The notes: generated by a model from the letters alone, not told the origin. A DNA stretch of 45,623 nucleotides from Chitinophagaceae bacterium (GCA_036260755.1 DATAMD010000357.1:1-45623); one strand, 5' to 3'. Numbered from the stretch's first letter, positions 1-42,149 are shown. Numbers and translations are program-made.

Positions 1-390
1 GATCAGCAGCAGGAACCCAAAACATTAAAGAACATTAAAGTATTTCCTGCAACAGCAACTTTTAAAGAAGTAGATAAGGCGATGGATGGTTTTAAAGTTG
101 CTTTAGGTGTTCATTGCGATTATTGCCATGCACATTCAAAAGAAAATCCGAGAAAGATGGATATGCCAAGTGATGAAAATCACAAAAAAGATATTGCCCG
201 TGATATGATGCGAATGACTGAAGAAATGAATAAAAAATTTATCAGCCAGATACCGCATGACGATACCGCAAAAGTGCAAATGATAACTTGTAATACTTGC
301 CATCGCGGCGCACCAAAACCCTTTGGCCAACCGCCGGTATATCCAAAATGGCCGGGAAACCCGCCACCGCCTCCTCCACATGAAAAATAA
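1..390 (+). CDS. c-type cytochrome (photosynthetic-reaction-centre cytochrome c subunit-like), 5'-partial
   Basis: Frame 1 is open from nt 1, so the ORF-track Met at 82 is internal. Two CxxCH haem motifs (CDYCH, CNTCH). Pro-rich tail GNPPPPPPHEK. TAA stop at 388-390. Confidence 0.7.
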   Translation, partial: DQQQEPKTLKNIKVFPATATFKEVDKAMDGFKVALGVHCDYCHAHSKENPRKMDMPSDENHKKDIARDMMRMTEEMNKKFISQIPHDDTAKVQMITCNTCHRGAPKPFGQPPVYPKWPGNPPPPPPHEK

Positions 391-415: not shown

Positions 416-480
416 AGGTTGAATAATTTAGTTTGCATTTGCTTGTAACCGGCATTTGAAAACTTTTATTCAACCTTTTT
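416..480 (+). terminator. long stem-loop plus T-run downstream of the cytochrome gene
   Basis: AGGTTGAATAA (416-426) pairs with TTATTCAACCT (466-476), extended by AGTTT/AAACT, then TTTTT. The loop carries a solo GTAACCGGC box (445-453). Confidence 0.4.
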
Positions 481-3698: not shown

Positions 3699-4724
3699 AT
3701 GAAGATTCATTACAAAAAACACGAACTGCCTTTCCAATATCCATTTACCATTTCTAACGGAAGAACAAAAACACATCAACCCACGCTCATCGTTTCGCTG
3801 CAACTCGGCAACTGCATTGGTTTTGGCGAAGCACCGGCCATTACTTATTATAATATTACTGTAGAAGAAATGATTGCTGATATTGAATCTAAAAAAACTT
3901 ATTTAGAAAAATTTGCTTTCACCGATCCCGAACGTTACTGGCATTATGTGCATCATTTATTTCCAAACAATCCATTTTTGGTTTGTGCACTGGATATAGC
4001 CGGATGGGATTTATTTGGAAAGATGGACAACAAATTATTGTACGAATTATGGCAAACAAAATGGGAAAACACAGCTTCAACCGATTATACCATTGGCATT
4101 GATACCATCGAAAAAATGGTTGCTAAAATGAAAGCAAAACCATGGCCTATCTATAAAATTAAATTAGGAACCGATGAAGATATTGCCATTGTAAAAGCAT
4201 TGCGAAAACATACAGATGCAGTTTTTAGAATTGACGCAAATGCAGGATGGACGCTGGATGAAGCCGTTGTTAAAATTGCACAGTTAAAAGAATTGGGTGT
4301 TGAATATATAGAGCAGCCTTTGGCAAAAGATAACTGGGCTGATATGAAAATATTATTTCAGCAATCGGCTTTGCCGTTGATTGCCGATGAAAGTTGTGTA
4401 TCGGAAAACGATGTCGAAAAATGTGTGAATCATTTTCACGGCATTAATATTAAACTTACAAAATGCAGCGGCATAACACCGGCTTTGCGCATGATTAAAA
4501 ATGCAAGGGCATTGAATTTAAAACTGATGATGGGCAGTATGAATGAGAGCAGCATTGGTTCTGCGGCCATCGCTAATTTTTTGCCGCAATTAGATTATGT
4601 TGATATGGATGGACCGTTATTGCAAACAGAAGACTTGGCAACAGGAATTGATTTTGATTTTGGTAAAGTAGAAATAAAGGGTAAAGTTGGTTTGGGGATT
4701 GAAGCAATAAAAAATATTTTTTAA
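3699..4724 (+). CDS. dipeptide epimerase (L-Ala-D/L-Glu epimerase-like, enolase superfamily)
   Basis: Enolase-superfamily MLE-subgroup landmarks YKIKLG, RIDANAGW, YIEQP, IADES, NIKLTKCSG. ATG 3699 (MKIHYKK) is preferred over TTG 3651. Confidence 0.8.
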   Translation: MKIHYKKHELPFQYPFTISNGRTKTHQPTLIVSLQLGNCIGFGEAPAITYYNITVEEMIADIESKKTYLEKFAFTDPERYWHYVHHLFPNNPFLVCALDIAGWDLFGKMDNKLLYELWQTKWENTASTDYTIGIDTIEKMVAKMKAKPWPIYKIKLGTDEDIAIVKALRKHTDAVFRIDANAGWTLDEAVVKIAQLKELGVEYIEQPLAKDNWADMKILFQQSALPLIADESCVSENDVEKCVNHFHGINIKLTKCSGITPALRMIKNARALNLKLMMGSMNESSIGSAAIANFLPQLDYVDMDGPLLQTEDLATGIDFDFGKVEIKGKVGLGIEAIKNIF

Positions 4725-4746
4725 AAAGCTGAGCAGCATTGATTAC

Positions 4747-4805
4747 GTACAAGTGTGCGACGCAACAACAGCTTCATAGAAATATTGCTGCCGGTAACAA
4801 AAAAA
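4747..4805 (+). repeat. bipartite intergenic element, copy A (Box1-N23-Box2-A-run)
   Basis: GTACAAGTGTGCGACGCAAC (4747-4766), 23 nt, GCCGGTAAC (4790-4798), AAAAAAA abutting the stop codon at 4806. Confidence 0.85.
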
Positions 4806-6554
4806 TTATCTTCTTTTCTTTTTAGAATAATTATAAAGCTTATCGGCTTTTTGAATCAATAAAATAAATTCCTGTTGCGAAATATTGTTGGCATCGGCGG
4901 CATGTTGTGCAATTAATTTTACATCTTCATAATTATATTTTACAAACTTCGATTGTTTTATTAAACTGCTGAACATGGCAACAGCAGCGGCAAAACGAAC
5001 AGGAGCAGGTGCCGTTAAAAAATCCTGCAGATTGCAGGGAGCATAAAATTTTTGCGTAATCATTTTTTCATCGCCGGGTAAATGATATTGCAGCGTAAAG
5101 TTTGCCAATGTTGCCGAAGAATCTTTCATTTCTTTATTGGGTATAATTTCAAAAATGGCTGTGGTGTTATGTCCGCTGCCAATTTCGCCGCCTTCTAATA
5201 CACTGCTGCTGTCGGCCACAGCATCTTTTTTATTTTCAAAACCAATCAATCGGTATTCTTTTACATAATCATTTGCGAAGCGAACATTTAAAAAAGCATC
5301 GTTGGCAACAGCATAAACTGTTTTGGTAAATTCGGTGACTAAAACTTTTTCGGCTTCATTAATATTATCCAGATAAGCAAAATTGCCATTGCCTTTTTTT
5401 GCAAGCACTTCTAATTTACTGTCTTTATAATTTCCCATGCCAACGCCAATACAGGTAAGATAAATTCCGCTTTGCCGTTCAAACGAAATAAGGTCTTCCA
5501 ATTCTTTTTCGGATGTTTGTCCAACATTAAAATCGCCATCGGTAGCCAAAATAATTCTGTTGTTGCCATTTTTAATAAACGATCTTCTGGCAATGGAATA
5601 AGCAGTACGGATAGCACCTTCGCCCGGTGTATCGCCATCGGCATACAATGAATCGATGATGTTATTTATTTTTTCTTTTTCGGCGCCGCTGGTTGAATAT
5701 AATCGTATGTTAACGCCACCGCCGTAGGTTACAATGCAGATGCTATCTTTTGCACGTAAATTTTCTACCAATAATTTAAAAGCGCTTTGTAGAAGAGGTA
5801 AACGATTGGGGCGTTCCATCGACCCCGAAACATCAATTAAAAAAACAAGATTACTGGATGGAATAGTATCTAAATTAATTTTTGGCGCCGTAAGATTAAT
5901 AAACAATAATTTACTTGCTGCATTCCACGGGCAGGAAGTTAGGATTGTGTTGCAGGTGAAATTTTTATGATTGTTATTTGTTTTATTTGTTCGCAGATCA
6001 AAATAATTAAGCATCTCTTCAATCCGCACTGCATCAACCGGAACACGCATTTGATTTACCAGAAAACGGCGGGTATTGCTGTACGATGCACGGTCGATGT
6101 TTAACGAAAAACCTGTTTCGGGATAATGGTTTGCATCAACAAAAACATTTTCTGCAAGGCTGCTGTAGCTTTCGCCAAGGCCCGAAAATAATTTGTTATC
6201 TTCTTTTGTAAGATTAATTGTTTTTGAGGCCAGTTTATTTTTCATTGTGCTTGCCAATGCAGGCAGCATCTTCATCACTATAACCTGATATTTTTCTGTT
6301 TCAACAGCTTTGCGTAATGTTTCGTAACCATCGGCCGATAAAGTGATGGTGTCTATTTGAAGAGAAGAAGCAATGCCGAATAAACCAGAGTTTCCGCTGG
6401 AGAAAGTATAATTTCTTTTTGAAGATAAATTAATTTTTATGCCCGATAATAACTGTCCCTTCTCGTTTTTTACTTCGCCCTGCAAATAATATTGGCTGTT
6501 TGCAGTAAAAAATATTTCAAGACACAAACCAATGGTAAGCAAACACGATTTCAT
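4806..6554 (-). CDS. von Willebrand factor type A domain protein (YfbK-like), secreted
   Basis: N-terminal signal peptide. CarboxypepD_reg-like segment YYLQGEVKNEKGQLLSGIKINL. vWA MIDAS motif LVFLIDVSGSM. Long C-terminal domain typical of YfbK-type proteins. Confidence 0.8.
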   Translation of the reverse strand: MKSCLLTIGLCLEIFFTANSQYYLQGEVKNEKGQLLSGIKINLSSKRNYTFSSGNSGLFGIASSLQIDTITLSADGYETLRKAVETEKYQVIVMKMLPALASTMKNKLASKTINLTKEDNKLFSGLGESYSSLAENVFVDANHYPETGFSLNIDRASYSNTRRFLVNQMRVPVDAVRIEEMLNYFDLRTNKTNNNHKNFTCNTILTSCPWNAASKLLFINLTAPKINLDTIPSSNLVFLIDVSGSMERPNRLPLLQSAFKLLVENLRAKDSICIVTYGGGVNIRLYSTSGAEKEKINNIIDSLYADGDTPGEGAIRTAYSIARRSFIKNGNNRIILATDGDFNVGQTSEKELEDLISFERQSGIYLTCIGVGMGNYKDSKLEVLAKKGNGNFAYLDNINEAEKVLVTEFTKTVYAVANDAFLNVRFANDYVKEYRLIGFENKKDAVADSSSVLEGGEIGSGHNTTAIFEIIPNKEMKDSSATLANFTLQYHLPGDEKMITQKFYAPCNLQDFLTAPAPVRFAAAVAMFSSLIKQSKFVKYNYEDVKLIAQHAADANNISQQEFILLIQKADKLYNYSKKKRR

Positions 6555-9989: not shown

Positions 9990-10144
9990 CATTAACGCAT
10001 CAATCAATTAATAACTGTTGCTATGAATTCAATTCGGGACTTTGAAACGAGTCCCGATTGCATCGGAATAAACTATGCAACAGGAGATGCCCTGATAGTA
10101 TCGGGGGGCCGGCTACAAAATACTTCTACCGATAACATAAAAAA

Positions 10145-11014
10145 TTAATCCAGCAAATTAGCCAGTTGTTTTAATTCGTTTTGTTTGTATTCGTTAGACG
10201 GGAGATCGAAACATTTGGCAACTTCTTCGGCCAATACCTGAATGATTCTTTTGTGCGATAAAGGTTTGTAATAAGATGCAACAGGCGGCACATTGATACG
10301 CTTAAAATAATTTTCTATGTCTTTGTGCGAATAAGCTTGCCCGTTAACGCCATCAACATAAAAATGAATTTTTTCCTGCGGATTACCTTTATACGTTTCG
10401 GCATCAAAATCTGTTTGATAAAATGCAATGATCATTTGTTTTGGGATGTTGATGATCTTGGCATTAATATCCAGCAACTCGCACATCACCTGATAAATAA
10501 TTCCGTTGCTGATGGCATTGCCGTTCTTGGTTTCTAAAACTTTATTGATAAAAAATTCATCGTGATTGGTATAATTAACCTCGGCACCTTTTAACTGATA
10601 ATAATTATACATGATGCTCGATAAAACATTGGCTTGTTCGAGCGGCGTGAGGTAGCTGTTTAATTCTAACCAAACATTGCGCCTTATTTTTTCAATATCC
10701 TGTAACACAGGCGTAGTGTGCAGATCGGGATATTGAAACTTGGCAATTAATAAGGCACCAAATAAAAGATCGTGGTATGAACTGTTTTTCCATTCAATTA
10801 AATCGTTGGTGAGATCGGTGTAGTGCAAGCGATGGATAAGCATTTCAATTCTTTCCTGCACATCTTCACTTAAAGTATTTTCCCATAAATCTTCCAGATT
10901 AGGAATAATGCCTTTTCCAAACTCAACGATCTTTTCCGATACGGTTGAATAAACTTCATGATCGGGATCGTCTATCAGGGTAAACAGTGCGTTGATTTCC
11001 TTTGTCTGTTGCAT
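10145..11014 (-). CDS. conserved hypothetical protein, possibly transglutaminase-like / SirB1-like
   Basis: 289-aa ORF with no signal peptide. It resembles Bacteroidetes proteins usually annotated as transglutaminase family. This assignment is from memory only. Confidence 0.45.
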   Translation of the reverse strand: MQQTKEINALFTLIDDPDHEVYSTVSEKIVEFGKGIIPNLEDLWENTLSEDVQERIEMLIHRLHYTDLTNDLIEWKNSSYHDLLFGALLIAKFQYPDLHTTPVLQDIEKIRRNVWLELNSYLTPLEQANVLSSIMYNYYQLKGAEVNYTNHDEFFINKVLETKNGNAISNGIIYQVMCELLDINAKIINIPKQMIIAFYQTDFDAETYKGNPQEKIHFYVDGVNGQAYSHKDIENYFKRINVPPVASYYKPLSHKRIIQVLAEEVAKCFDLPSNEYKQNELKQLANLLD

Positions 11015-13015: not shown

Positions 13016-13040
13016 TTTGAAATATATAGCTAAATAAAAA

Positions 13041-13069
13041 AGCTTCAGCAATTGACTGAAGCTTTTTTA
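13041..13069. terminator. bidirectional intrinsic terminator between convergent genes
   Basis: AGCTTCAG (13041-13048), 7-nt loop, CTGAAGCT (13056-13063). Flanked by an A-run upstream and TTTTTT downstream. Confidence 0.7.
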
Positions 13070-13079
13070 TTTTAATTAT

Positions 13080-13131
13080 GTTACCGGCTACAGAATGCTT
13101 ATGTGGCTTTGGTTGCGTCGCACTCTTCAAC
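13080..13131 (-). repeat. bipartite intergenic element, copy B
   Basis: GTTACCGGC (13080-13088), 23 nt, GTTGCGTCGCACTCTTCAAC (13112-13131). This is the reverse complement of the copy A architecture. It starts 14 nt after the topA stop. Confidence 0.85.
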
Positions 13132-13144
13132 GTTTAGTTCGCTA

Positions 13145-15700
13145 TTATTTTTTCTTCGAAGTTTTCTTTGTTGCTGTTTTTTTCACGGTTGATTTTTTTG
13201 CAAATGCATTAGGCACTTGTTCTTCAATCATTTTTTTTATGGTATCCAAATCAATTGTTGAAAGTTCTGAAGCTTCATATTTTGTTCCATCTGCTTTTTT
13301 ACCAAGCTTAAGCATTTTCTTCTGAAAGCGAATAAATGCACCCCATCTTCCGTTCTCGATAGATATTTTTTCTGCCGGCCATTGCTGAATAAAACGATTG
13401 GCTTCTTTATCAATTTTTTTCTCAATCAATTCTTTAATATCATTCTCGCTTAACGCATCAAAATTATACGCCCTTGGAATATTGATGTACATATCGTTCC
13501 ACTTAATAAAAGGGCCAAATCTTCCTTTGCCTTTTGTTACCCGAAGTTCTTCATAAAAACCAATCGGTGCATCGGCGTGTTGCTTTTCATTAATTAATTG
13601 AATGGCTCTGTCTAATTCAATGGTATGTAAATCTTCGCCTTTCGGAATAGAAATAAATTGTTCGCCTAATTTAATGTATGGGCCAAACCTTCCAACATTA
13701 ACGCTTAATTCCATTCCTTCATATTCGCCCAATGTTCTTGGCAATTCAAATAATTTCATTGCCTCATCAAACGTAATGGTTTCGATACTTTGCGTAGATT
13801 TTAATTTTGCAAAACGTGGCTTCTCTTCTTCGTTATTGCTATCACCAATTTGCACCATCGCACCATAACGCCCCATTCTTGCAATAACTTTTTTACCGCT
13901 TGCAGCATCAACACCTAATTCTCTTTCGCCCTTGGCACGTTCGGCATTTTCTAAAGTATGTTCAATACCAACATGAAATGGTTTATAAAAATCATCGATC
14001 ATTTTATTCCATTGCATTTTGCCTTCGGCAATTTCATCAAACTCCTGTTCAATAAACGCAGTAAAACCGTAATCCATCACTTTATCAAAATGTTGTTTCA
14101 AAAAATCTGTTACAACACTGCCCAGATCGGTTGGAAATAATTTCGATTTTTCGGCGCCTGTATTTTCAAACGAACTCGATTTTTCTATTGCATTATTTTT
14201 TGTTAACCTCAATAAATTTACTTCGCGTTTAACACCTTCCTTATCGCGTTTTTCAACATAATTTCTTTTAACAATTGTAGAAATAGTTGGTGCATAAGTT
14301 GATGGGCGGCCAATGCCTAATTCCTCCAACTTCTTTACCAGCGAGGCTTCTGTGTATCTTGCTGCGGGCCGGGAAAATTTTTCGGTTGCAGTCATTTCCC
14401 TAAAATCTAAAATCTGGTTTACACGCAACGGCGGCAGTATGCCTTCGTTATCTTCTTCATCTTCATCATCTTTTCCTTCGAGATAAATTTTCAAAAAACC
14501 ATCAAACTTCATCACTTCGCCGGTTGCTGAAAGTTGTTCGTTATTGGTGCTGATATTAATTTTTGCAGTGGTCTTTTCAAATTCGGCATCACTCATCTGC
14601 GAAGCAATGGTTCTTCTCCAAATTAATTCATACAAACGTTTCAGATCAACATCATCAACCGTTTTATTATTCATGTATGTTGGGCGAATGGCTTCATGCG
14701 CTTCCTGTGCGCTATCATTTTTATTTTTAAATTTTCTCGGCTGATGATAATTATCGCCGTACGAATTTTTAATTTCTTTGCTGATATCTGCCAATGCTGT
14801 ATCACTTAAATTAATACTGTCGGTACGCATATAAGTTATCTTACCGCTTTCGTATAATTTTTGTGCCAGCAACATGGTTTTACTAACACCATAACCTAAT
14901 TTTCTGGAAGCTTCCTGTTGCAAGGTGGATGTAGTAAAAGGCGCAGCCGGTGTACGTTTGCCGGGCTTTACCTGGATATCCGTTACCGTATAATTTGCGG
15001 CCTTGCAGGTTTCTAAAAAATGTGCGGCATCCTGTTGTGTATTAACTTTCGAAGGGCCGTCGGCTTTAAACGTAACATCTTTTCCGTTAATACCTTTTGC
15101 AGCAAATAGTGCTTCAATTTTATAACTGCTCTCTGCAATAAACTGGTTAATTTCTCTTTCTCTTTCAACAATCAATCGCACTGCAACGCTTTGTACACGG
15201 CCTGCACTTAAACTTCGTTGCATACCAATTTTTCGCCATAGAACCGGACTTAATTCAAATCCTACCAATCTATCCAGCACACGCCTGGCTTGTTGTGCAT
15301 TAACCAAATTCATATCAATTAATCTGGGATTATCAACTGCTTTTCTAATGGCTGGTGCAGTAATTTCATGAAACACAATTCGCTTGGTTGTTTTAGGATC
15401 CAGTCCCAATACTTCAGCCAAATGCCAACTGATACTTTCTCCTTCGCGGTCCTCATCCGATGCCAGCCAAACTTCATCGGCTTTTTTTGCCAACTGCTTC
15501 AAATCCTTTACTACTTTGGATTTATCGTCGGGTACAAAATATCGCGGCGTATAATTATTATTTACGTCAATGCCCATATCATCTTTTTCCAGATCACGGA
15601 TATGGCCGTAACAGCTCTTTACTTCGAAATTACTTCCAAGTATTTTTTCAATTGTTTTTGCTTTTGCAGGCGACTCAACGATCAATAGATTTTTTGCCAT
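13145..15700 (-). CDS. topA: DNA topoisomerase I
   Basis: 851 aa. TOPRIM N-terminus LLIVESPAKAKTIEKILG, active-site region GKITYMRTDS, C-terminal repeated domains and a Lys-rich tail. Confidence 0.95.
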   Translation of the reverse strand: MAKNLLIVESPAKAKTIEKILGSNFEVKSCYGHIRDLEKDDMGIDVNNNYTPRYFVPDDKSKVVKDLKQLAKKADEVWLASDEDREGESISWHLAEVLGLDPKTTKRIVFHEITAPAIRKAVDNPRLIDMNLVNAQQARRVLDRLVGFELSPVLWRKIGMQRSLSAGRVQSVAVRLIVEREREINQFIAESSYKIEALFAAKGINGKDVTFKADGPSKVNTQQDAAHFLETCKAANYTVTDIQVKPGKRTPAAPFTTSTLQQEASRKLGYGVSKTMLLAQKLYESGKITYMRTDSINLSDTALADISKEIKNSYGDNYHQPRKFKNKNDSAQEAHEAIRPTYMNNKTVDDVDLKRLYELIWRRTIASQMSDAEFEKTTAKINISTNNEQLSATGEVMKFDGFLKIYLEGKDDEDEEDNEGILPPLRVNQILDFREMTATEKFSRPAARYTEASLVKKLEELGIGRPSTYAPTISTIVKRNYVEKRDKEGVKREVNLLRLTKNNAIEKSSSFENTGAEKSKLFPTDLGSVVTDFLKQHFDKVMDYGFTAFIEQEFDEIAEGKMQWNKMIDDFYKPFHVGIEHTLENAERAKGERELGVDAASGKKVIARMGRYGAMVQIGDSNNEEEKPRFAKLKSTQSIETITFDEAMKLFELPRTLGEYEGMELSVNVGRFGPYIKLGEQFISIPKGEDLHTIELDRAIQLINEKQHADAPIGFYEELRVTKGKGRFGPFIKWNDMYINIPRAYNFDALSENDIKELIEKKIDKEANRFIQQWPAEKISIENGRWGAFIRFQKKMLKLGKKADGTKYEASELSTIDLDTIKKMIEEQVPNAFAKKSTVKKTATKKTSKKK

Positions 15701-15724
15701 TCTATATAATTATGATATTGTTTT

Positions 15725-15776
15725 TTAACCGGCTTTTGTATTACTATTTAGCTGCGGTTGCGTCGCACACTTCAAC
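15725..15776 (-). repeat. bipartite intergenic element, copy C
   Basis: TTAACCGGC (15725-15733), 23 nt, GTTGCGTCGCACACTTCAAC (15757-15776). Box2 lies 24 nt upstream of the topA ATG. Confidence 0.8.
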
Positions 15777-15835
15777 TGTCGGGATGTGCTTCGGCAGTTG
15801 CAATATTAGTTCAAACTGTTAAATCACAAAAAATC

Positions 15836-17496: not shown

Positions 17497-17739
17497 ATGA
17501 GTCATTTTGAGCCACCCATTCACTGGAACGATTACGAAGACATAGCATTAAAATTATACGAACGTTTTGGAGATGATTTTAATGAATCAAAAATTTACCG
17601 GCTGCGTTTTACCGATTTATTAGAGTGGGTTTTGCAAATACCTAATTTTGTTGGCACCCGCGAACAAAGTAATGAAGGCCATTTAGAAATGATTCAGAGC
17701 AGTTGGGTGTACGAATGGCGCGATAACCAGAAGAAATAA
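17497..17739 (+). CDS. iscX: Fe-S cluster assembly protein IscX (YfhJ family)
   Basis: 80 aa. It aligns by eye to E. coli IscX landmarks (W.D..DIA..LY, RFTDL..WV, SNEGHLEMIQSSW). Confidence 0.7.
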   Translation: MSHFEPPIHWNDYEDIALKLYERFGDDFNESKIYRLRFTDLLEWVLQIPNFVGTREQSNEGHLEMIQSSWVYEWRDNQKK

Positions 17740-17743
17740 TTTT

Positions 17744-17829
17744 TATTACACAGATTAATTCGAATTACACGAATTAATACAATAAACTATTTTGCGAACT
17801 CGTGTAATTAGCTAAAATTCGTGTAATAA
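17744..17829. repeat. 33-bp imperfect inverted repeat built from TTCGTGTAAT units
   Basis: Left arm TTATTACACAGATTAATTCGAATTACACGAATT (17744-17775). Right arm AACTCGTGTAATTAGCTAAAATTCGTGTAATAA (17797-17829). Four (C/T)GTGTAAT units, two in each orientation. Confidence 0.7.
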
Positions 17830-17883
17830 ATTGGCAAATGCATTTTAATTACCACATTTGCAGTATCATTTAACCCCACGCAA

Positions 17884-20055: not shown

Positions 20056-20586
20056 ATGACAGAAAAATTATTGCAATTCATCTGGCAATTCCAGTACTTC
20101 AACAAAAGTGAATTATGCACCGATGACGGTGATGTTTTACAGATCATCAAACCCGGTATTTATAATCTAAATCAAGGCCCCGATTTTTTGGAATCATCTG
20201 TAAAAGTAGCGGCAGTAAAGCTTTTCGGCAATATAGAATTGCATGTTAATGCTTCAGATTGGAATAAACACGGGCATTCTTCCGACAAAAATTATTCGAA
20301 TATAATCTTGCATGTTATCTGGGAAGATGATATAAAAACACCTAATAAAATTAAACTGCCAACATTAACACTGCACAACAGGGTTCCCAAAATTTTATTG
20401 CAGCGGTACGAGCAATTAATGAACGAAGGAAATGTTTTGCACTGCAAAAATTATTTGCCTGCATTAAGCAATATGGGCTGGATAGCATGGAAAGAAAGAT
20501 TGATGATTGAAAGATTAGAAATAAAATCAAAAAAGATTTTAAATTTTTTAGAAGAAACCAATCGTCATTGGGAAGAAGTTTTTTGA
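20056..20586 (+). CDS. DUF2851 family protein, N-terminal part (ends at an in-frame TGA)
   Basis: LLQFIWQFQYF and ELHVNASDWNKHGH motifs typical of DUF2851. Same reading frame as the next ORF. Confidence 0.7.
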   Translation: MTEKLLQFIWQFQYFNKSELCTDDGDVLQIIKPGIYNLNQGPDFLESSVKVAAVKLFGNIELHVNASDWNKHGHSSDKNYSNIILHVIWEDDIKTPNKIKLPTLTLHNRVPKILLQRYEQLMNEGNVLHCKNYLPALSNMGWIAWKERLMIERLEIKSKKILNFLEETNRHWEEVF

Positions 20587-20589
20587 TGG

Positions 20590-21324
20590 ATGATTGCTGC
20601 CAACTTTGGCGTAAAAGTAAATGCAGAATTATTCGGGGCTGTTGCAAAATCCATCTCCATAAATATTTTGGCGAAACATAAAAATCAAATTCATCAATTA
20701 GAAGCATTGTTAATGGGACAGGCAAATTTACTGAATGAAGATTTTGAAGAAGATTATCCAAAGCTGTTGCAGCGTGAATATCAATTCCTTTTCAAAAAAT
20801 ATAAACTTGCCAAAGTTAATGCTGCCGTGCATTTCCTGCGGATGCGCCCTGCAAATTTCCCAACCGTTCGATTGGCGCAGTTAGCCATGCTGATAAAAAA
20901 TGTTTCTCATCTTTTTTCAAAGATCAAAGAAATGAATGAGGTTGATGAAGTGCGCAAATTATTCAACATCACCTGTAACGATTACTGGCATTATCATTTT
21001 GTGTTTGATGAAACAACAAAGTATAAACCCAAACATTTGGGCCAGCAAATGATCGATAATATTTTAATCAATACCATCATCCCTGTTTTATTTGCGTATG
21101 GCCTGCATCAAAACGAACAGGCATGCAAAGACAAAGCCCTGCGTTGGTTATCCGAAATAAAACCCGAAGAAAATATTATTACCAAATCATGGAAATTATT
21201 GCAAATCGAAAATAAAAATGCGTTCGATTCTCAGGCATTAATTCATCTTAAAAATAATTATTGCCAAAATAAACTTTGCCTGCAATGTGCTGTTGGAAAT
21301 AAAATTTTAAAGCCTACCAGTTAA
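20590..21324 (+). CDS. DUF2851 family protein, C-terminal part
   Basis: Starts with ATG two codons after the TGA at 20584-20586 and is in frame with 20056-20586. It continues the family (IAANFGVKVN ... CLQCAVG). Confidence 0.7.
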   Translation: MIAANFGVKVNAELFGAVAKSISINILAKHKNQIHQLEALLMGQANLLNEDFEEDYPKLLQREYQFLFKKYKLAKVNAAVHFLRMRPANFPTVRLAQLAMLIKNVSHLFSKIKEMNEVDEVRKLFNITCNDYWHYHFVFDETTKYKPKHLGQQMIDNILINTIIPVLFAYGLHQNEQACKDKALRWLSEIKPEENIITKSWKLLQIENKNAFDSQALIHLKNNYCQNKLCLQCAVGNKILKPTS

Positions 21325-22600: not shown

Positions 22601-22676
22601 TTATTGGCCAACTGTAGTGCTGCTATCGGCTCCGGTTGTCTTCGCTTCTTCCGGTGGAAGAAGGGCTCACTTATAC
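22601..22676 (-). repeat. decayed copy of the bipartite element with an inserted 8-bp hairpin
   Basis: TTGGCCAACTGTAG resembles GTTACCGGCTACAG of copy B. CTTCTTCC-GGT-GGAAGAAG is a perfect stem (22645-22663). GGCTCACTTATAC resembles GTCGCACACTTATAC. Confidence 0.35.
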
Positions 22677-25744: not shown

Positions 25745-25899
25745 GGAACAGGGATAACGCTGATGAAGTTGTGAGTAGCGAGCTGTGAGCTTCGAGCAAC
25801 TTCTCGTAGCTCGCAGCTCACAGCTCATAGCTTTCCTCAGTACAAGAGTGCGACGCCTCAAAAGTTAAACAGAATACCAAAAGCTTGTAAACAAAAAAA
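25745..25899 (+). repeat. long variant of the bipartite element, copy D (heptamer-array module + Box1-N23-Box2-A-run)
   Basis: Begins GGAACAGGGATAACGC. Mirror heptamer arrays at 25771-25798 and 25804-25831. Box1 GTACAAGAGTGCGACGCCTC (25840-25859), 23 nt, GCTTGTAAA (25883-25891). The A-run abuts the stop codon at 25900. Confidence 0.85.
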
Positions 25900-26829
25900 T
25901 TAAACTACATCATTTTCTTTTTTCGATTGACGGCCAATTAATATTACACCAAGAATGACCAATAATGTTCCGATTAATTGCAAAGGAATAATTTTTTCGC
26001 CTAAAATAAAATGTGCCTGCACGATAGTTGAAACAGGGCCAACACTTGTTATGATGGCAACATTATTACTGCCAATACTCTTCATGCCGTAACTCATCAT
26101 AAACGATGGAAGTACCGTTGCTACAATTGCTATTGTTAGCGAATAATAAATTAATGTTGGCGAAAACGCAATGCCGGCAACAGTTTTAGCGGATAAGAAA
26201 TGAACAAAAATTCCGGCAGTTGCAAACAACATGGCATAAACGGTGTAACGCGTGGCACCAACTTTGTTTACTAATCTTCCTGTACCTACCAAATAAAATG
26301 AGTAAGTAACAGCGCAAAGAAAAATCATAAATGTGCCGTAATAAAAATTTGGATTCGAAGTATCTAATTTCATTTCGCCTAAATAAGCAATGCCAATTCC
26401 GGCATAAGTTAATGCCAACGCAATGATCTGTGTTTTGCTGAGTTTTGTTTTAAACCAAAATGTATTTATTAAAATGGCGAATGTGGGATAGAGAAATAAA
26501 ATTAATCTTTCTAATCCTGCAGAAATGTATTGCAGTCCGATGAAATCGAACAGGCTGCTTAAATAATAACCAAAGATGCCCATCAAAAAAATAAAGAACC
26601 ACTGACGTGAATTAATTTTTTGCGAGCCTTCTTTTCTTCCTTCAACAAATCCAACAATTAAATAAAATGGTAATGAAAATAACATGCGTAAACTAAGCAA
26701 TGTTAATGCATCAACATGTGTTGAGTGAAAAGTTAATTTGACAAAAATTGCTTTGGTAGAAAAAAATATAGCACCCGCCAATGTAACCAAAAAACCGGTT
26801 AATGATATTTGTTTTTGTTGTTGGGTCAT
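25900..26829 (-). CDS. DMT-superfamily (EamA-like) transporter
   Basis: 309 aa, 10 predicted TM helices in two EamA-like halves. Confidence 0.85.
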   Translation of the reverse strand: MTQQQKQISLTGFLVTLAGAIFFSTKAIFVKLTFHSTHVDALTLLSLRMLFSLPFYLIVGFVEGRKEGSQKINSRQWFFIFLMGIFGYYLSSLFDFIGLQYISAGLERLILFLYPTFAILINTFWFKTKLSKTQIIALALTYAGIGIAYLGEMKLDTSNPNFYYGTFMIFLCAVTYSFYLVGTGRLVNKVGATRYTVYAMLFATAGIFVHFLSAKTVAGIAFSPTLIYYSLTIAIVATVLPSFMMSYGMKSIGSNNVAIITSVGPVSTIVQAHFILGEKIIPLQLIGTLLVILGVILIGRQSKKENDVV

Positions 26830-27752: not shown

Positions 27753-27802
27753 ATGTGCAAATAGCCGAATGTGCAAATTTGAAGATGTGCAAATGTGTAA
27801 AT
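27753..27802. repeat. ATGTGCAAAT decamer repeated three times at exact 16-bp phasing
   Basis: Identical decamers at 27753-27762, 27769-27778 and 27785-27794, plus a degenerate ATGTGTAAAT at 27793-27802. Confidence 0.8.
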
Positions 27803-27810
27803 TATTTTGT

Positions 27811-27943
27811 GTAACGAGCTGTAGTTTTTCACTGAAACGTCTGTTGCGTCGCACACTTGTACTAAGAAAAGCTATGAGCTGTTAGCAGCGAGCTACGAGG
27901 ATTTGCTCGAAGCTCACAGCTTCTTTAGCGTTACCCGTGTTCC
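27811..27943 (-). repeat. long variant of the bipartite element, copy E (inverted relative to copy D)
   Basis: GTAACGAGC (27811-27819), 23 nt, GTTGCGTCGCACACTTGTAC (27843-27862), then the heptamer module. Ends ...GCGTTACCCGTGTTCC (27943). The reverse complement aligns with copy D end to end. Confidence 0.85.
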
Positions 27944-28782: not shown

Positions 28783-28835
28783 GGTTGCAAAGAAAACTAA
28801 TTTTTATGTAAACCATGTTGAATAAAGAACAAAGC

Positions 28836-28896
28836 GTATAAGTGTGCGACGCAACAGGTGTTGAAAAGAATTACTGTTGCCGGTAAACAAAAAAAT
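28836..28896 (+). repeat. bipartite intergenic element, copy F
   Basis: GTATAAGTGTGCGACGCAAC (28836-28855), 23 nt, GCCGGTAAA (28879-28887), then an A-run. This is the only full copy antisense to both flanking genes. Confidence 0.85.
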
Positions 28897-35531: not shown

Positions 35532-35567
35532 ATTGTTTTTCGTTTCTTTGATGGTGATGTTATTTTT

Positions 35568-35675
35568 GTAACCGGCAAAAGTATTTCATGGCATAAAACA
35601 AATTGCATCCGTTTCTCTTCTCCAATTGGAGAAGATGCCTGAAAGGCAGATGAGGCTTGTGTCACTCACTTGTAC
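35568..35675 (-). repeat. decayed reverse-orientation copy of the bipartite element with inserted hairpins (G-left)
   Basis: GTAACCGGC (35568-35576). Perfect stem TCTTCTCC-AATT-GGAGAAGA (35616-35635). TGCCT-GAA-AGGCA (35636-35648). Degenerate Box1 complement CTTGTGTCACTCACTTGTAC (35656-35675). Confidence 0.5.
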
Positions 35676-35797
35676 GTTCTAAGCTGCGAGGAGCGAGCTG
35701 TGAGCTTCGAGAAAAAGCTCATAGCCTTTCTTAAGTTGAAGAGTGCGACGCAACAACAGCATTATTGAAAAACAGAAGCCGGTAACATTAAAAAAAC
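35676..35797 (+). repeat. long-variant bipartite element, copy G-right
   Basis: Short heptamer module GAGCGAGCTGTGAGCTTCGAG..AGCTCATAGCC. Box1 GTTGAAGAGTGCGACGCAAC (35735-35754), 23 nt, GCCGGTAAC (35778-35786), then an A-run. Confidence 0.85.
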
Positions 35798-35846
35798 TAA
35801 AAAATAAAAACTAAATCATCGAATTAGGATTGCAGATTTAAAAAAA

Positions 35847-35883
35847 TTAATTCGTGTAATTCGCAAAAATTCGTGTAATAAAA
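35847..35883 (+). repeat. second locus of the TTCGTGTAAT motif pair
   Basis: AATTCGTGTAATTCGCAAAAATTCGTGTAATAAA closely matches 17797-17829 (CTCGTGTAATTAGCTAAAATTCGTGTAATAAA). It lies 20 nt upstream of ATG 35903. Confidence 0.7.
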
Positions 35884-35902
35884 ATATTAAATCTTATATC
35901 GG

Positions 35903-39772: not shown

Positions 39773-39906
39773 GGCTTCAGTTTTTGATAAGTTTCTTAAT
39801 GTGAAGTTACATACATTTGCGACGTTGGCAATGCTATAATAAATGCTGCAAAGATTCTGCCAAAGTGTATTAAAAAATGTTAATTTGTTAAAGTAGACAA
39901 AAAAGT

Positions 39907-41385: not shown

Positions 41386-41408
41386 TTTTATTCTTTAAAT
41401 AAATTATG

Positions 41409-41446
41409 AATGCCGGTTACTTAAAACAAGTGCCGGCATTTTTTTA
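41409..41446 (+). terminator. intrinsic terminator after proS
   Basis: AATGCCGG (41409-41416) pairs with CCGGCATT (41433-41440), followed by TTTTTTT. Confidence 0.55.
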
Positions 41447-41463: not shown

Positions 41464-41548
41464 GTTGAAGTATGCAATACTTTGTTGAGCTAAGTACCGA
41501 TTGCCTCTTTTGATGCCATGAAAATGTGTTGCCGGTAACAAAATATTT
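41464..41548 (+). repeat. decayed copy of the bipartite element
   Basis: GTTGAAGTATGCAATAC differs from GTTGAAGTGTGCGACGC only by transitions. An intact GCCGGTAAC (41531-41539) plus A-rich tail runs to the stop codon at 41553. The spacer is lengthened. Confidence 0.4.
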
Positions 41549-41552
41549 TGCA

Positions 41553-42149
41553 TTAAAATTCGATCCCCATTTTTATTGATAGCCTTTGAAAGCTGAAATG
41601 GTATTGATAATAATTGGTTTGATAATGGAGCATTTGAGACAGATCCATCCATGGGAAATATGTAATAATATGTTGCGAATAATTAAACTGTTTGTAACTG
41701 TAGCCTGCCGACAAAAAAAACTTATTGTTTTTTGTAATGGCTTTGCTTATTCCAATTCCTGTTTCTGCATATAGCGAATTAGTAAACGTATATGCCTCAC
41801 TGCCATCGCTCCAGTTTTTTGGATAATTATTATTGCGTAATGTGTAATTTTTTCCGGCATCGGCATACAAAAAAGGCATCCATTGTTTGTTGCCAAAATA
41901 TTTTCTGGCATCAATAAAAACGGGGACGCTTGCAATTTGATACGGATCGTAAGCAACGCCAAAACCCGCAATCCAATTGTGTTTTAGCTTAAAACCATTT
42001 ACAGTTTGCAAACTAATGCCGCTAGAATTTTTTCCAACAATAACACCAATATTGTTGATACTTGTAAACCTTAATTTCTTTTCTGTTTTTTGTGCATTGA
42101 TGTGTTGAAATAAAATTAACAGCACAATGACTATTATAATTTTTTTCAT
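41553..42149 (-). CDS. small outer-membrane beta-barrel protein (hypothetical)
   Basis: Signal peptide MKKIIIVIVLLILFQHINAQ, alternating strands, C-terminal ...KMGIEF. Confidence 0.5.
   Translation of the reverse strand: MKKIIIVIVLLILFQHINAQKTEKKLRFTSINNIGVIVGKNSSGISLQTVNGFKLKHNWIAGFGVAYDPYQIASVPVFIDARKYFGNKQWMPFLYADAGKNYTLRNNNYPKNWSDGSEAYTFTNSLYAETGIGISKAITKNNKFFLSAGYSYKQFNYSQHIITYFPWMDLSQMLHYQTNYYQYHFSFQRLSIKMGIEF

Follow-up and report, generated by a model that had tools for sequence, protein, structure and literature searches.

We describe here an intergenic DNA element of about 85 bp that recurs throughout a 45,623-nt (45.6 kb) stretch of DNA from a Chitinophagaceae bacterium (36% G+C), referred to below as the window, and that is also found in other Chitinophagaceae and on phage contigs. 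The copy at 4747-4805 (+) illustrates its core, a 20-nt Box1, GTACAAGTGTGCGACGCAAC, followed by 23 nt of spacer, a 9-nt Box2, GCCGGTAAC, and then AAAAAAA. We found that only the boxes are common to the copies, that no consensus RNA fold can be recovered from them, and that copies lying close together are almost always arranged head to head.

Our tentative reading, towards which we lean without calling it probable, is that this is an intergenic element resembling repetitive extragenic palindromes (REPs), the paired REPs known as REPINs and bacterial interspersed mosaic elements (BIMEs), and that it serves as the cis-acting site of a dedicated sequence-specific protein. The involvement of a protein is suggested by the near-invariance of the 20-nt box, by a Box1 dialect that alters symmetrically, by the fixed spacing of the boxes and by the indifference of the element to orientation. 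Such a protein would bind symmetrically on a palindrome within Box1 and would make further contacts at Box2 and at a third box, Box0, some three to four helical turns away; candidate outcomes of binding are an effect on DNA topology or architecture, or upkeep of the copies by a domesticated transposase-like enzyme. The family would be an old one, restricted to a lineage of Chitinophagaceae (Bacteroidota) and the phages presumably infecting them, and its members would be transcriptionally permissive, tolerated at gene borders either way round, vertically inherited and subject to decay upon loss of the system. The element appears to be undescribed, as a literature search with Box1 as a text string returned only chance primer matches, keyword searches gave no description of it and Rfam holds no such family.

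Anatomy of the element

The 12-nt core of Box1, GTGCGACGCAAC, has six exact occurrences in the window, and the seventh full copy carries it at 25848 with two mismatches. Allowing up to two mismatches there are seven matches against 1.84 expected, and Box2 at up to one mismatch gives 24 matches against 4.4 expected. A profile hidden Markov model built only from copies in other genomes finds the same seven copies (E = 3.5e-19 to 3.5e-6), together with additional weaker partial matches. The seven had been listed in a first-pass annotation of the window, and both the motif counts and the outside profile bear them out. That annotation had described a two-box element of about 60 bp with a spacer of exactly 23 nt and free sequence, and this description needs revision. 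The gap, taken from the coordinates, is indeed 23 nt in all seven copies, but across the family it varies from 21 to 24 nt (21 nt, n = 16; 22 nt, n = 40; 23 nt, n = 47; 24 nt, n = 4). The spacer does diverge between copies, but it carries a motif of its own; and the element is longer than was thought, owing to Box0 at -25.

To describe the anatomy we aligned 145 copies having the Box1 12-mer in common. It can be seen that the element is composed of Box0, Box1, the spacer, Box2 and an A-run. Box0 has the consensus T[GC][AC][AG][TC]A[AG], usually TGAATAA or TGAATAG (TGAATAR), and is present at -25 +/-1 from the 12-mer in 50 of 196 copies. A similar heptamer occurs again in the spacer at +18 +/-1, 43 bp from Box0, and because of this recurrence the element can be regarded as two tandem half-units of about 43 bp each. 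A long target duplication would make the Box0 region resemble the spacer of the same copy; the similarity was 5.69 vs 5.21 (p = 0.012), a weak effect that base composition could cause. The spacer as a whole is semi-conserved as RA..GYT.AAYA. Box2 has the consensus GCYGGTWAC, with the dialects GCCGGTAAC, GCTGGTTAC or GCYGGSTAC, and is followed by 4-7 A and then by T-rich sequence.

Box1 consists of GYAC or GTTG, then AAGW, then GTGCGACGCAAC, and the eight bases ahead of the 12-mer are thus also conserved (G, T/C, AC/TG, A-A-G-W). The 5' tetranucleotide, which lies 4-5 nt from the palindrome, is GTAC in 67 copies, GTTG in 28, GCTG in 11 and GCAC in 10. Its last two bases fall into two classes with almost no intermediates (AC 66, TG 36, AG 0, TC 1), and membership of a class shows no linkage to any other column of the alignment. 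Alternative local pairings (GUAC:GUGC or GUUG:CAAC), or template-switch mutation in a quasi-palindrome, would explain this dimorphism.

The 9-bp palindrome of Box1, TGCG-A-CGCA, had been singled out in the first-pass annotation, and its importance is upheld by a recurrent dialect, GAGTGACACAAC (GTG-A-CAC; also GAGTGACAC), in which C3 to T is coupled with G7 to A so that both arms change and symmetry is kept. This dialect is present at loci L088, L089, L095 and L097, at the phage locus L199 and in window copy H (L-numbers are labels of comparison loci, bacterial or phage). The centre of the palindrome, GTGCGA^CGCAAC, is in addition a recurrent insertion point for perfect GC-rich hairpins, which are found at L102, at phage loci L249/L253, at L110 and at 22601-22676 in the window. 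Box2, for its part, can be co-opted into hairpins, since the 5' arm of the intrinsic terminator after proS (41405-41445) is the Box2-like GCCGGTTAC and, at L091, a Box2 variant pairs with downstream sequence as a perfect hairpin. We also noted what we take to be a resemblance of Box1 GTACAAGAGTGCGACGCAAC to the helix-45 region of 16S rRNA, GTACCGGAAGGTGCGGCTGGAAC, and of Box2 with its A-run to CGTAACAAGG just upstream of that region; this is probably due to chance because the order of the boxes is reversed.

The first-pass annotation had preferred a two-contact protein site to a terminator hairpin, and the negative part of that view was confirmed, the element being neither such a hairpin nor a structured RNA. 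RNAalifold gave no consensus structure for 146 copies on either strand; by mutual information the strongest pairs were all near neighbours in one box or at a spacer end, with no long-range link; and shuffling the spacers left the folding energy unchanged. Covariation had been proposed as a check, as had Rfam, which returned nothing at gathering threshold for the window, nothing on the element at E <= 5 and, at ten further loci, no match on the element at gathering threshold. The seven window copies have folding z-scores of -2.4 to +0.9 per strand (mean about -0.5) and inconsistent predicted folds. There are no tRNAs in the window. A scan for intrinsic terminators called no canonical copy, the run after Box2 being A and not T, and the only calls made at an element belong to neighbouring modules, namely an AGCT hairpin at 35697-35725 and a separate hairpin at 13032-13072. 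The Bacteroidota sigma-A promoter (-33 TTTG / -7 TAnnTTTG, about 18-19 nt apart) is not found in the element logo on either strand. We considered and rejected a coding role, in which Box1 would read VQECDAT in one frame; gaps of 21, 22 and 23 nt break the frame and some copies contain stop codons. Because there is no RNA fold, and because the orientation counts are 43:34 in genomes and 9:14 in phages (see below), we read the element as DNA. The lack of a fold speaks for the proposed protein site, but the protein itself is inferred.

Distribution, placement and pairing

When species-representative genomes were scanned with the pattern Box1-N10-40-GCCGGTAA, at least 109 loci were recovered. Among the matches listed with titles, all but 3 chance matches came from Chitinophagaceae or other Chitinophagales/Bacteroidota, the genera including Terrimonas, Ferruginibacter, Segetibacter, Flavisolibacter, Hydrotalea, Sediminibacterium, Lacibacter, Niabella and Flavihumibacter. 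The element occurs once per 4.8 kb in these loci, which were chosen for having a copy, and once per 7.6 kb in the window; extrapolation from one per 5-8 kb gives hundreds of copies per genome. An unbiased sample, 527 kb from 80 metagenomic loci that surround topA orthologues of 68-90% protein identity, contained only 7-8 copies, and in most close relatives the element is absent or decayed. As in the window, the topA leader and the DNA following topA each contain an intact copy in L115 (84% TopA identity); L110, the closest relative (89-90%), has decayed but recognisable copies at both sites; L111 and L112 (85-86%) have no copy at either; and one copy is found in the topA leader of distant clades too (L156, L174/L182). 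The comparison loci included no genome of the same species, the best DNA identity being 79%.

Where orthologous copies have flanks that are 70-94% identical, the 12-mer (in part by ascertainment) and Box2 are kept, the spacers have diverged and the 5' tetranucleotide can be of the AC class in one orthologue and of the TG class in another. The exact 12-mer is present in 162 of 180 profile hits, most loci having been selected on it; in the window, which was not so selected, it is exact in 6 of 7 canonical copies. Spacer similarity is 0.44 within a genome and 0.41 between genomes, vs 0.32 for shuffled sequence. Since spacers are as different within a genome as between genomes, there is no trace of recent copying. 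Decayed copies lie beside intact ones within the same genome.

None of the genomic copies examined lies inside a gene, and the claim that the element is exclusively intergenic holds for all window copies. It had also been stated that most spacers of more than 100 bp in the window carry a copy, which is an overestimate, as only about half do. Likewise, the rule that the element lies in sense orientation after a stop codon is obeyed by 6 of the 7 full window copies but fails outside, where there is no orientation bias: 114 classifiable genomic copies comprise 43 tandem-sense and 34 tandem-antisense copies, 20 between divergent and 17 between convergent genes. Convergent regions have 2.0 copies per kb of intergenic DNA, tandem regions 1.4 and divergent regions 0.9. 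A convergent gene has its stop codon 4-7 nt past Box2 in about 27 copies, and a same-strand ATG lies 13-55 nt past Box2 in about 45 of 132 copies, most such ATGs being at this distance. The Box1 side is usually farther from the neighbouring gene, although the TGA or TAA of Box0 is sometimes the stop codon of the upstream gene.

Where two copies lay no more than 250 nt apart, the pair was head-to-head in 15 cases, tail-to-tail in one and direct in none. Some head-to-head pairs have merged into a perfect 38-nt palindrome (L069, L081, L103), and others surround a conserved 80-nt core (L091, L095, L099). The spacers of the two arms of a dimer are unrelated to each other.

Bacteroidota-type promoter TTTG-N18-TAATATTG precedes topA in the window (about 15801-15830, -), beginning directly after the stop codon of the upstream gene, and it is kept in 10 of 10 relatives inspected. 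The topA leader copy (copy C) must therefore be transcribed, as it is located between this promoter and the topA start codon. Relatives that lack the element have attenuator-like hairpins with U-runs in their topA leaders.

Box1 was also found on contigs in IMG/VR, where about 30 of 56 matching stretches are true elements, often with 2-3 per contig. The contigs bearing them encode major head protein, portal, terminase, tail sheath and tape measure. Phage copies completely fill gaps of 73-98 nt between co-directional late genes of the head and tail operons, with 9 in sense and 14 in antisense orientation and 5 between convergent genes. Transcription must pass through the element, given these phage copies within co-directional late operons and copy C in the topA leader. 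Four related phages (L250-253) have the element at the junction of the tail tube and chaperone genes, in one case with a 20-nt palindrome in Box1, whereas more distant phages (L254-259) have an intrinsic terminator or a 27-nt gap. An exact empty site was not found among the phage relatives, the junctions being either near-identical or distant, and filled and empty sites did not align precisely. Among the related myovirus-like contigs L229 and L250-L259, those that have the element after the tail tube gene have it in antisense, and its spacer contains a perfect hairpin. Neither GenBank phages nor PLSDB plasmids yielded a match to the element.

Copies and other features of the window

Counting variant and decayed copies, of which there are at least four beyond the seven full ones, the window contains at least a dozen. 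They lie among housekeeping genes including topA, dapD, ackA-pta, the CCA-enzyme gene, proS, lipA and miaA. Copy A (4720..4811, +; 63.7 bits) has Box1 at 4747-4766, a 23-nt spacer, Box2 at 4790-4798 and its A-run at 4799-4805, and occupies the 81-nt gap between convergent genes encoding MR_MLE enolase-like and VWA proteins. Copy B (13070..13145, -; Box1 13112-13131, Box2 13080-13088) lies 13 nt past the topA stop codon and upstream of a bidirectional intrinsic terminator at 13032-13072. Copy C (15715..15798, -; Box1 15757-15776, Box2 GCCGGTTAA at 15725-15733) is within the topA 5' leader, downstream of the conserved promoter and 24 nt ahead of the ATG. Copy D (25832..25901, +; 22 bits) has a Box1 at 25840-25859 with a degenerate 3' end, GTGCGACGCCTC, and a Box2, GCTTGTAAA, at 25883-25891. 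As the first-pass annotation had it, the A-runs of copies A and D run up against the stop codon of a convergent gene: in copy A this codon (TTA on the + strand) begins 7 nt past Box2, and copy D abuts the stop of the EamA gene.

Copy E (27800..27864, -; Box1 27843-27862, Box2 GCTCGTTAC at 27811-27819) is situated between an MBL-fold gene and dapD, and copy F (28811..28896, +; Box0 TTGAATAAAG, Box1 28836-28855, Box2 28879-28887) is 19 nt past the ackA stop codon and antisense to both neighbouring genes. Copy G (35715..35794, +; Box1 35735-35754, Box2 35778-35786) is the right half of the sole head-to-head pair of the window, the other half being the variant copy H (35557..35675, -), which starts about 25 nt past the stop codon of the CCA-enzyme gene. 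Copy H reads as an A-run, Box2 GCCGGTTAC at 35568-35576, the usual 23-nt spacer, some 56 nt of inserted sequence in which there are two small hairpins, and then the dialect Box1 GTACAAGTGAGTGACACAAG at 35656-35675; it is a complete copy whose Box1 is of the dialect GAGTGACACAAG.

The remaining copies were, like copy H, judged by eye. Of the partial copies in the first-pass annotation, those at 22601-22676, 35568-35675 (copy H) and 41464-41548 are real, but the remnant at 445-453 is weak and the copy suspected at 39801-39870 is doubtful. The variant at 22601..22676 (-) has a 20-nt hairpin (CTTCTTCC-ACCG-GAAGAAG) inside the Box1 palindrome and a degenerate Box2, GGCCAATAA. In the decayed copy at 41464..41548 (+) Box1 is cut down to GTTGAAGTATGCAATAC and the gap is longer, with the spacer, Box2 (41531-41539) and A-run intact; it adjoins the stop codon of a convergent gene at 41553. 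A further decayed copy at about 10060..10145 (+), a weak match to the profile, reads ..TATGCAAC, a 25-nt spacer, GGCCGGCTAC and an A-rich tail, and adjoins the stop codon of a convergent gene at 10145. The weak remnant (442..463, -) is Box2 alone, GCCGGTTAC, with a profile E of 0.079.

An AGCT-rich hairpin module, GAGCTGTGAGCT...AGCTCACAGCTC with a T-rich tail, stands in for Box0 in three of the window copies, where it is joined to the 5' side of Box1. It lies at 25766..25839 (+) ahead of copy D, at 27863-27921 (-) ahead of copy E and at 35681-35734 (+). The module is terminator-like and may be a separate REP-like or terminator module. Together with their elements, the first two form inverted arms of 117 nt, 79% complementary, around EamA and dapD.

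Some other features were noted in passing. Palindromic operator-like repeats, AATTCGTGTAAT / ATTACACGAATT, are found in intergenic DNA at 17739-17830 and 35846-35885 (88-91% identical), upstream of a HAD-hydrolase gene and a PRiA4_ORF3-like gene, and are probably a transcription factor binding site. At 20056-21324 a DUF2851 protein is split into open reading frames 20056-20586 and 20590-21324 (profile positions 1-176 and 179-374), which indicates an in-frame stop or frameshift, whether from a pseudogene, a sequencing error or recoding. The Chitinophagaceae locus L042 encodes at 112-219 (-) a small signal recognition particle RNA of the Bacteroidales type (RF04183, 93 bits), unrelated to the element.

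Functional readings and likeness to known systems

Several observations weigh against a site for a dedicated protein. The unit cannot form a REP-type hairpin because its 4-bp arms flank a single base; not every copy can be under selection, since decayed and intact copies coexist in one genome; and hairpin insertions at the centre of the palindrome fit the apex of a single-stranded hairpin better than a duplex site for a dimer. The AC/TG dimorphism is without a simple explanation in terms of protein-DNA contacts, and the sharp placement of convergent stop codons 4-7 nt past Box2 is left unexplained. In addition, no protein family recurs beside the copies in about 1.3 Mb of context, the genes of the window are housekeeping genes only, and no binding protein or enzyme turned up.

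An alternative explanation, which we regard as possible but somewhat unlikely, is that the element is a selfish non-autonomous transposable element, either a miniature inverted-repeat transposable element (MITE) or a strict REPIN, moved by a transposase encoded elsewhere. The head-to-head pair would then be the full element, bounded on the outside by Box2 and the A-run, a single copy would be half of one, and insertion would take place where intergenic DNA is permissive, in chromosomes and phages alike. Consistent with this, presence varies at orthologous sites (the phage junctions of L250-253 vs L254-259, and the bacterial topA flanks), whole gaps are filled in compact phage operons in both orientations, head-to-head dimers occur, including the repeated composite with the 80-nt core, and there are decayed copies and a patchy phylogenetic distribution. 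However, there is no sign of recent copying, the spacers of dimer arms being unrelated. No target-site duplication was seen at the flanks of dimers or at the ends of single units; the latter also lack terminal inverted repeats, the two ends (Box0 vs Box2 plus A-run) being unlike. The boxes are intact at orthologous sites where spacers are randomised, which is not what a neutral fossil would show. No transposase, including those of the REP-associated RAYT type, was found in the window or recurrently near copies, although whole genomes were not scanned.

The protein-site reading can also be framed more broadly, in a form that we consider unlikely as it stands: part of the Chitinophagaceae would possess a DNA-recognition system that operates genome-wide and is inherited vertically, with the element as its cis-signal, for example a non-palindromic REPIN-like system run by a domesticated enzyme, or an uptake or 'self' signal, with boxes maintained by the host and phages sharing or mimicking the signal. 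If this is true, no such system has been described in Bacteroidota before, and its architecture of two tandem half-units around a 9-bp palindrome would be without parallel among known repeat classes. Should the boxes indeed be kept uniform across genera, at hundreds of sites in each genome, then a dedicated machinery has to be reading them, and none of this sort has been described for Bacteroidota. The existence of element-rich and element-free sister lineages, some with decayed copies, offers a handle on the partner gene by phylogenetic profiling, and element-rich strains are in culture (Terrimonas rubra, T. pollutisoli, Flavisolibacter longurius). The element could also serve to mark gene borders when Chitinophagaceae are annotated and to connect phage contigs with these hosts.

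It is distinctly unlikely that the element acts as RNA, in untranslated regions (UTRs) and at operon junctions, as a linear site for an RNA-binding protein or RNase with a role in processing, stability or factor-dependent termination. Copy C does lie in the transcribed topA leader and copy B in the topA 3' UTR ahead of a terminator, many copies are 13-55 nt ahead of a start codon, and at the phage tube-chaperone junction the element takes the place of the intrinsic terminator of relatives; moreover, copies of the AC class could form a small hairpin, GYAC-AAGW-GUGC, that includes a G.U pair, and extra hairpins are inserted at the apex of the palindrome. Against this, both neighbouring genes run antisense to the element in about 30% of genomic copies and half of those in phages, covariation and excess folding energy are lacking on either strand, as is an Rfam match, and there is no promoter motif at a fixed distance that would make the element its own transcription unit.

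We think it improbable that the element is a signal for DNA uptake or self-recognition by a surface or periplasmic receptor, its uniformity arising from biased uptake and recombination. Such a signal would account for a core that is near-invariant across genera and used in either orientation, for Box1 and Box2 dialects, for box variants that flip between orthologues, for the loss of the element from whole lineages leaving decayed copies, for inverted pairs close to gene ends and for the A-tract downstream of the core. The density, however, is only about one per 5-8 kb, and DNA uptake sequences are also enriched in coding DNA, where no copy of the element was found. The 85-bp multipartite architecture with fixed spacing is unlike that of known uptake signals, the polar placement at gene borders is left unexplained, and the literature search gave no sequence-specific competence in Bacteroidota.

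That the element is a promoter, with Box1 and Box2 recognised by an alternative sigma factor or with Box1 as the target of an RNA-guided activator such as dCas12f-sigmaE, is highly improbable: Box2 lies ahead of a same-strand ATG in the copies counted above, some copies directly follow a terminator hairpin, and GCAAC and GTAAC resemble what we take to be -35 motifs of extracytoplasmic function sigma factors, but 17 copies lie between convergent genes, in about 27 a convergent stop codon is found 4-7 nt from the Box2 end, every second phage copy is oriented against its operon, a box spacing of 21-24 nt exceeds that of sigma-70-family promoters, and topA already has its conserved -33/-7 promoter upstream of copy C. 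RNA-guided transcription from targets of roughly 15 nt does occur in Bacteroidota, but a genome contains only 1-7 targets of a dCas12f system, which precede transporter operons, with the guide RNA encoded beside dcas12f and rpoE (PMC13472631), whereas the element has, by extrapolation, hundreds of copies and occurs in every intergenic context, including convergent ones.

Among known systems, the DNA uptake sequences (DUS) of Neisseria occur at about one per kb, as do the uptake signal sequences (USS) of Pasteurellaceae; DUS form inverted pairs near gene ends and USS have an A-tract downstream of the core. The element is like both in its near-invariant family-wide core, dialects, use of either orientation, inverted pairs near gene ends and AT-tract, but it is far longer, multipartite, about five times sparser and absent from coding DNA. 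With MITEs such as the Correia elements of Neisseria, and with the pneumococcal BOX element, it has in common that it is short and intergenic, present or absent at orthologous sites, built of modular boxes and tolerated in operons; it differs in that the unit has neither terminal inverted repeats nor target-site duplications, and in that the copies share their boxes and not their full length. BIMEs of E. coli, which are mosaics of REPs with binding motifs for integration host factor and gyrase, likewise combine modular conserved boxes with separate hairpin modules (here the AGCT module and the small GC hairpins in or beside Box1), occur at the 3' ends of genes and presumably have their readers among the DNA-binding proteins of the host. 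The sequences are unrelated, however, and in the element it is the non-palindromic boxes that form the conserved core, the hairpins being optional.

The comparison with REPs and REPINs is the most extensive. REP units are imperfect palindromes with a stem of 5-13 bp, among which head-to-head dimers predominate (PMC3733652), and REPIN populations are vertically inherited and decay once the RAYT is lost (10.1101/2022.05.22.493013). Like them, the element has hundreds of short intergenic copies per genome, as singlets and mainly head-to-head dimers (15:1:0 for head-to-head, tail-to-tail and direct pairs), is commoner in tandem and convergent regions than in divergent ones and mildly prefers the 3' ends of genes, shows vertical inheritance, long persistence and decay where the system was lost, and carries a conserved tetranucleotide 5' of its palindrome, GTAC here vs GTAG. 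We have not filed it as a REP because the hairpin, the GTAG/CGTC tag and the master-sequence structure are wanting: the 9-bp palindrome, with 4-bp arms and a 1-nt centre, cannot fold into a 5-13-bp stem; GTAG is not seen among the 5' tetranucleotides and CGTC occurs only inside the palindrome on the other strand; and copies do not cluster around a master sequence. Unlike REPs, moreover, the element is multipartite, with Box0, Box1 and Box2 separated by a spacer that is constrained in length (21-24 nt) and free in sequence, and it occurs in phage operons.

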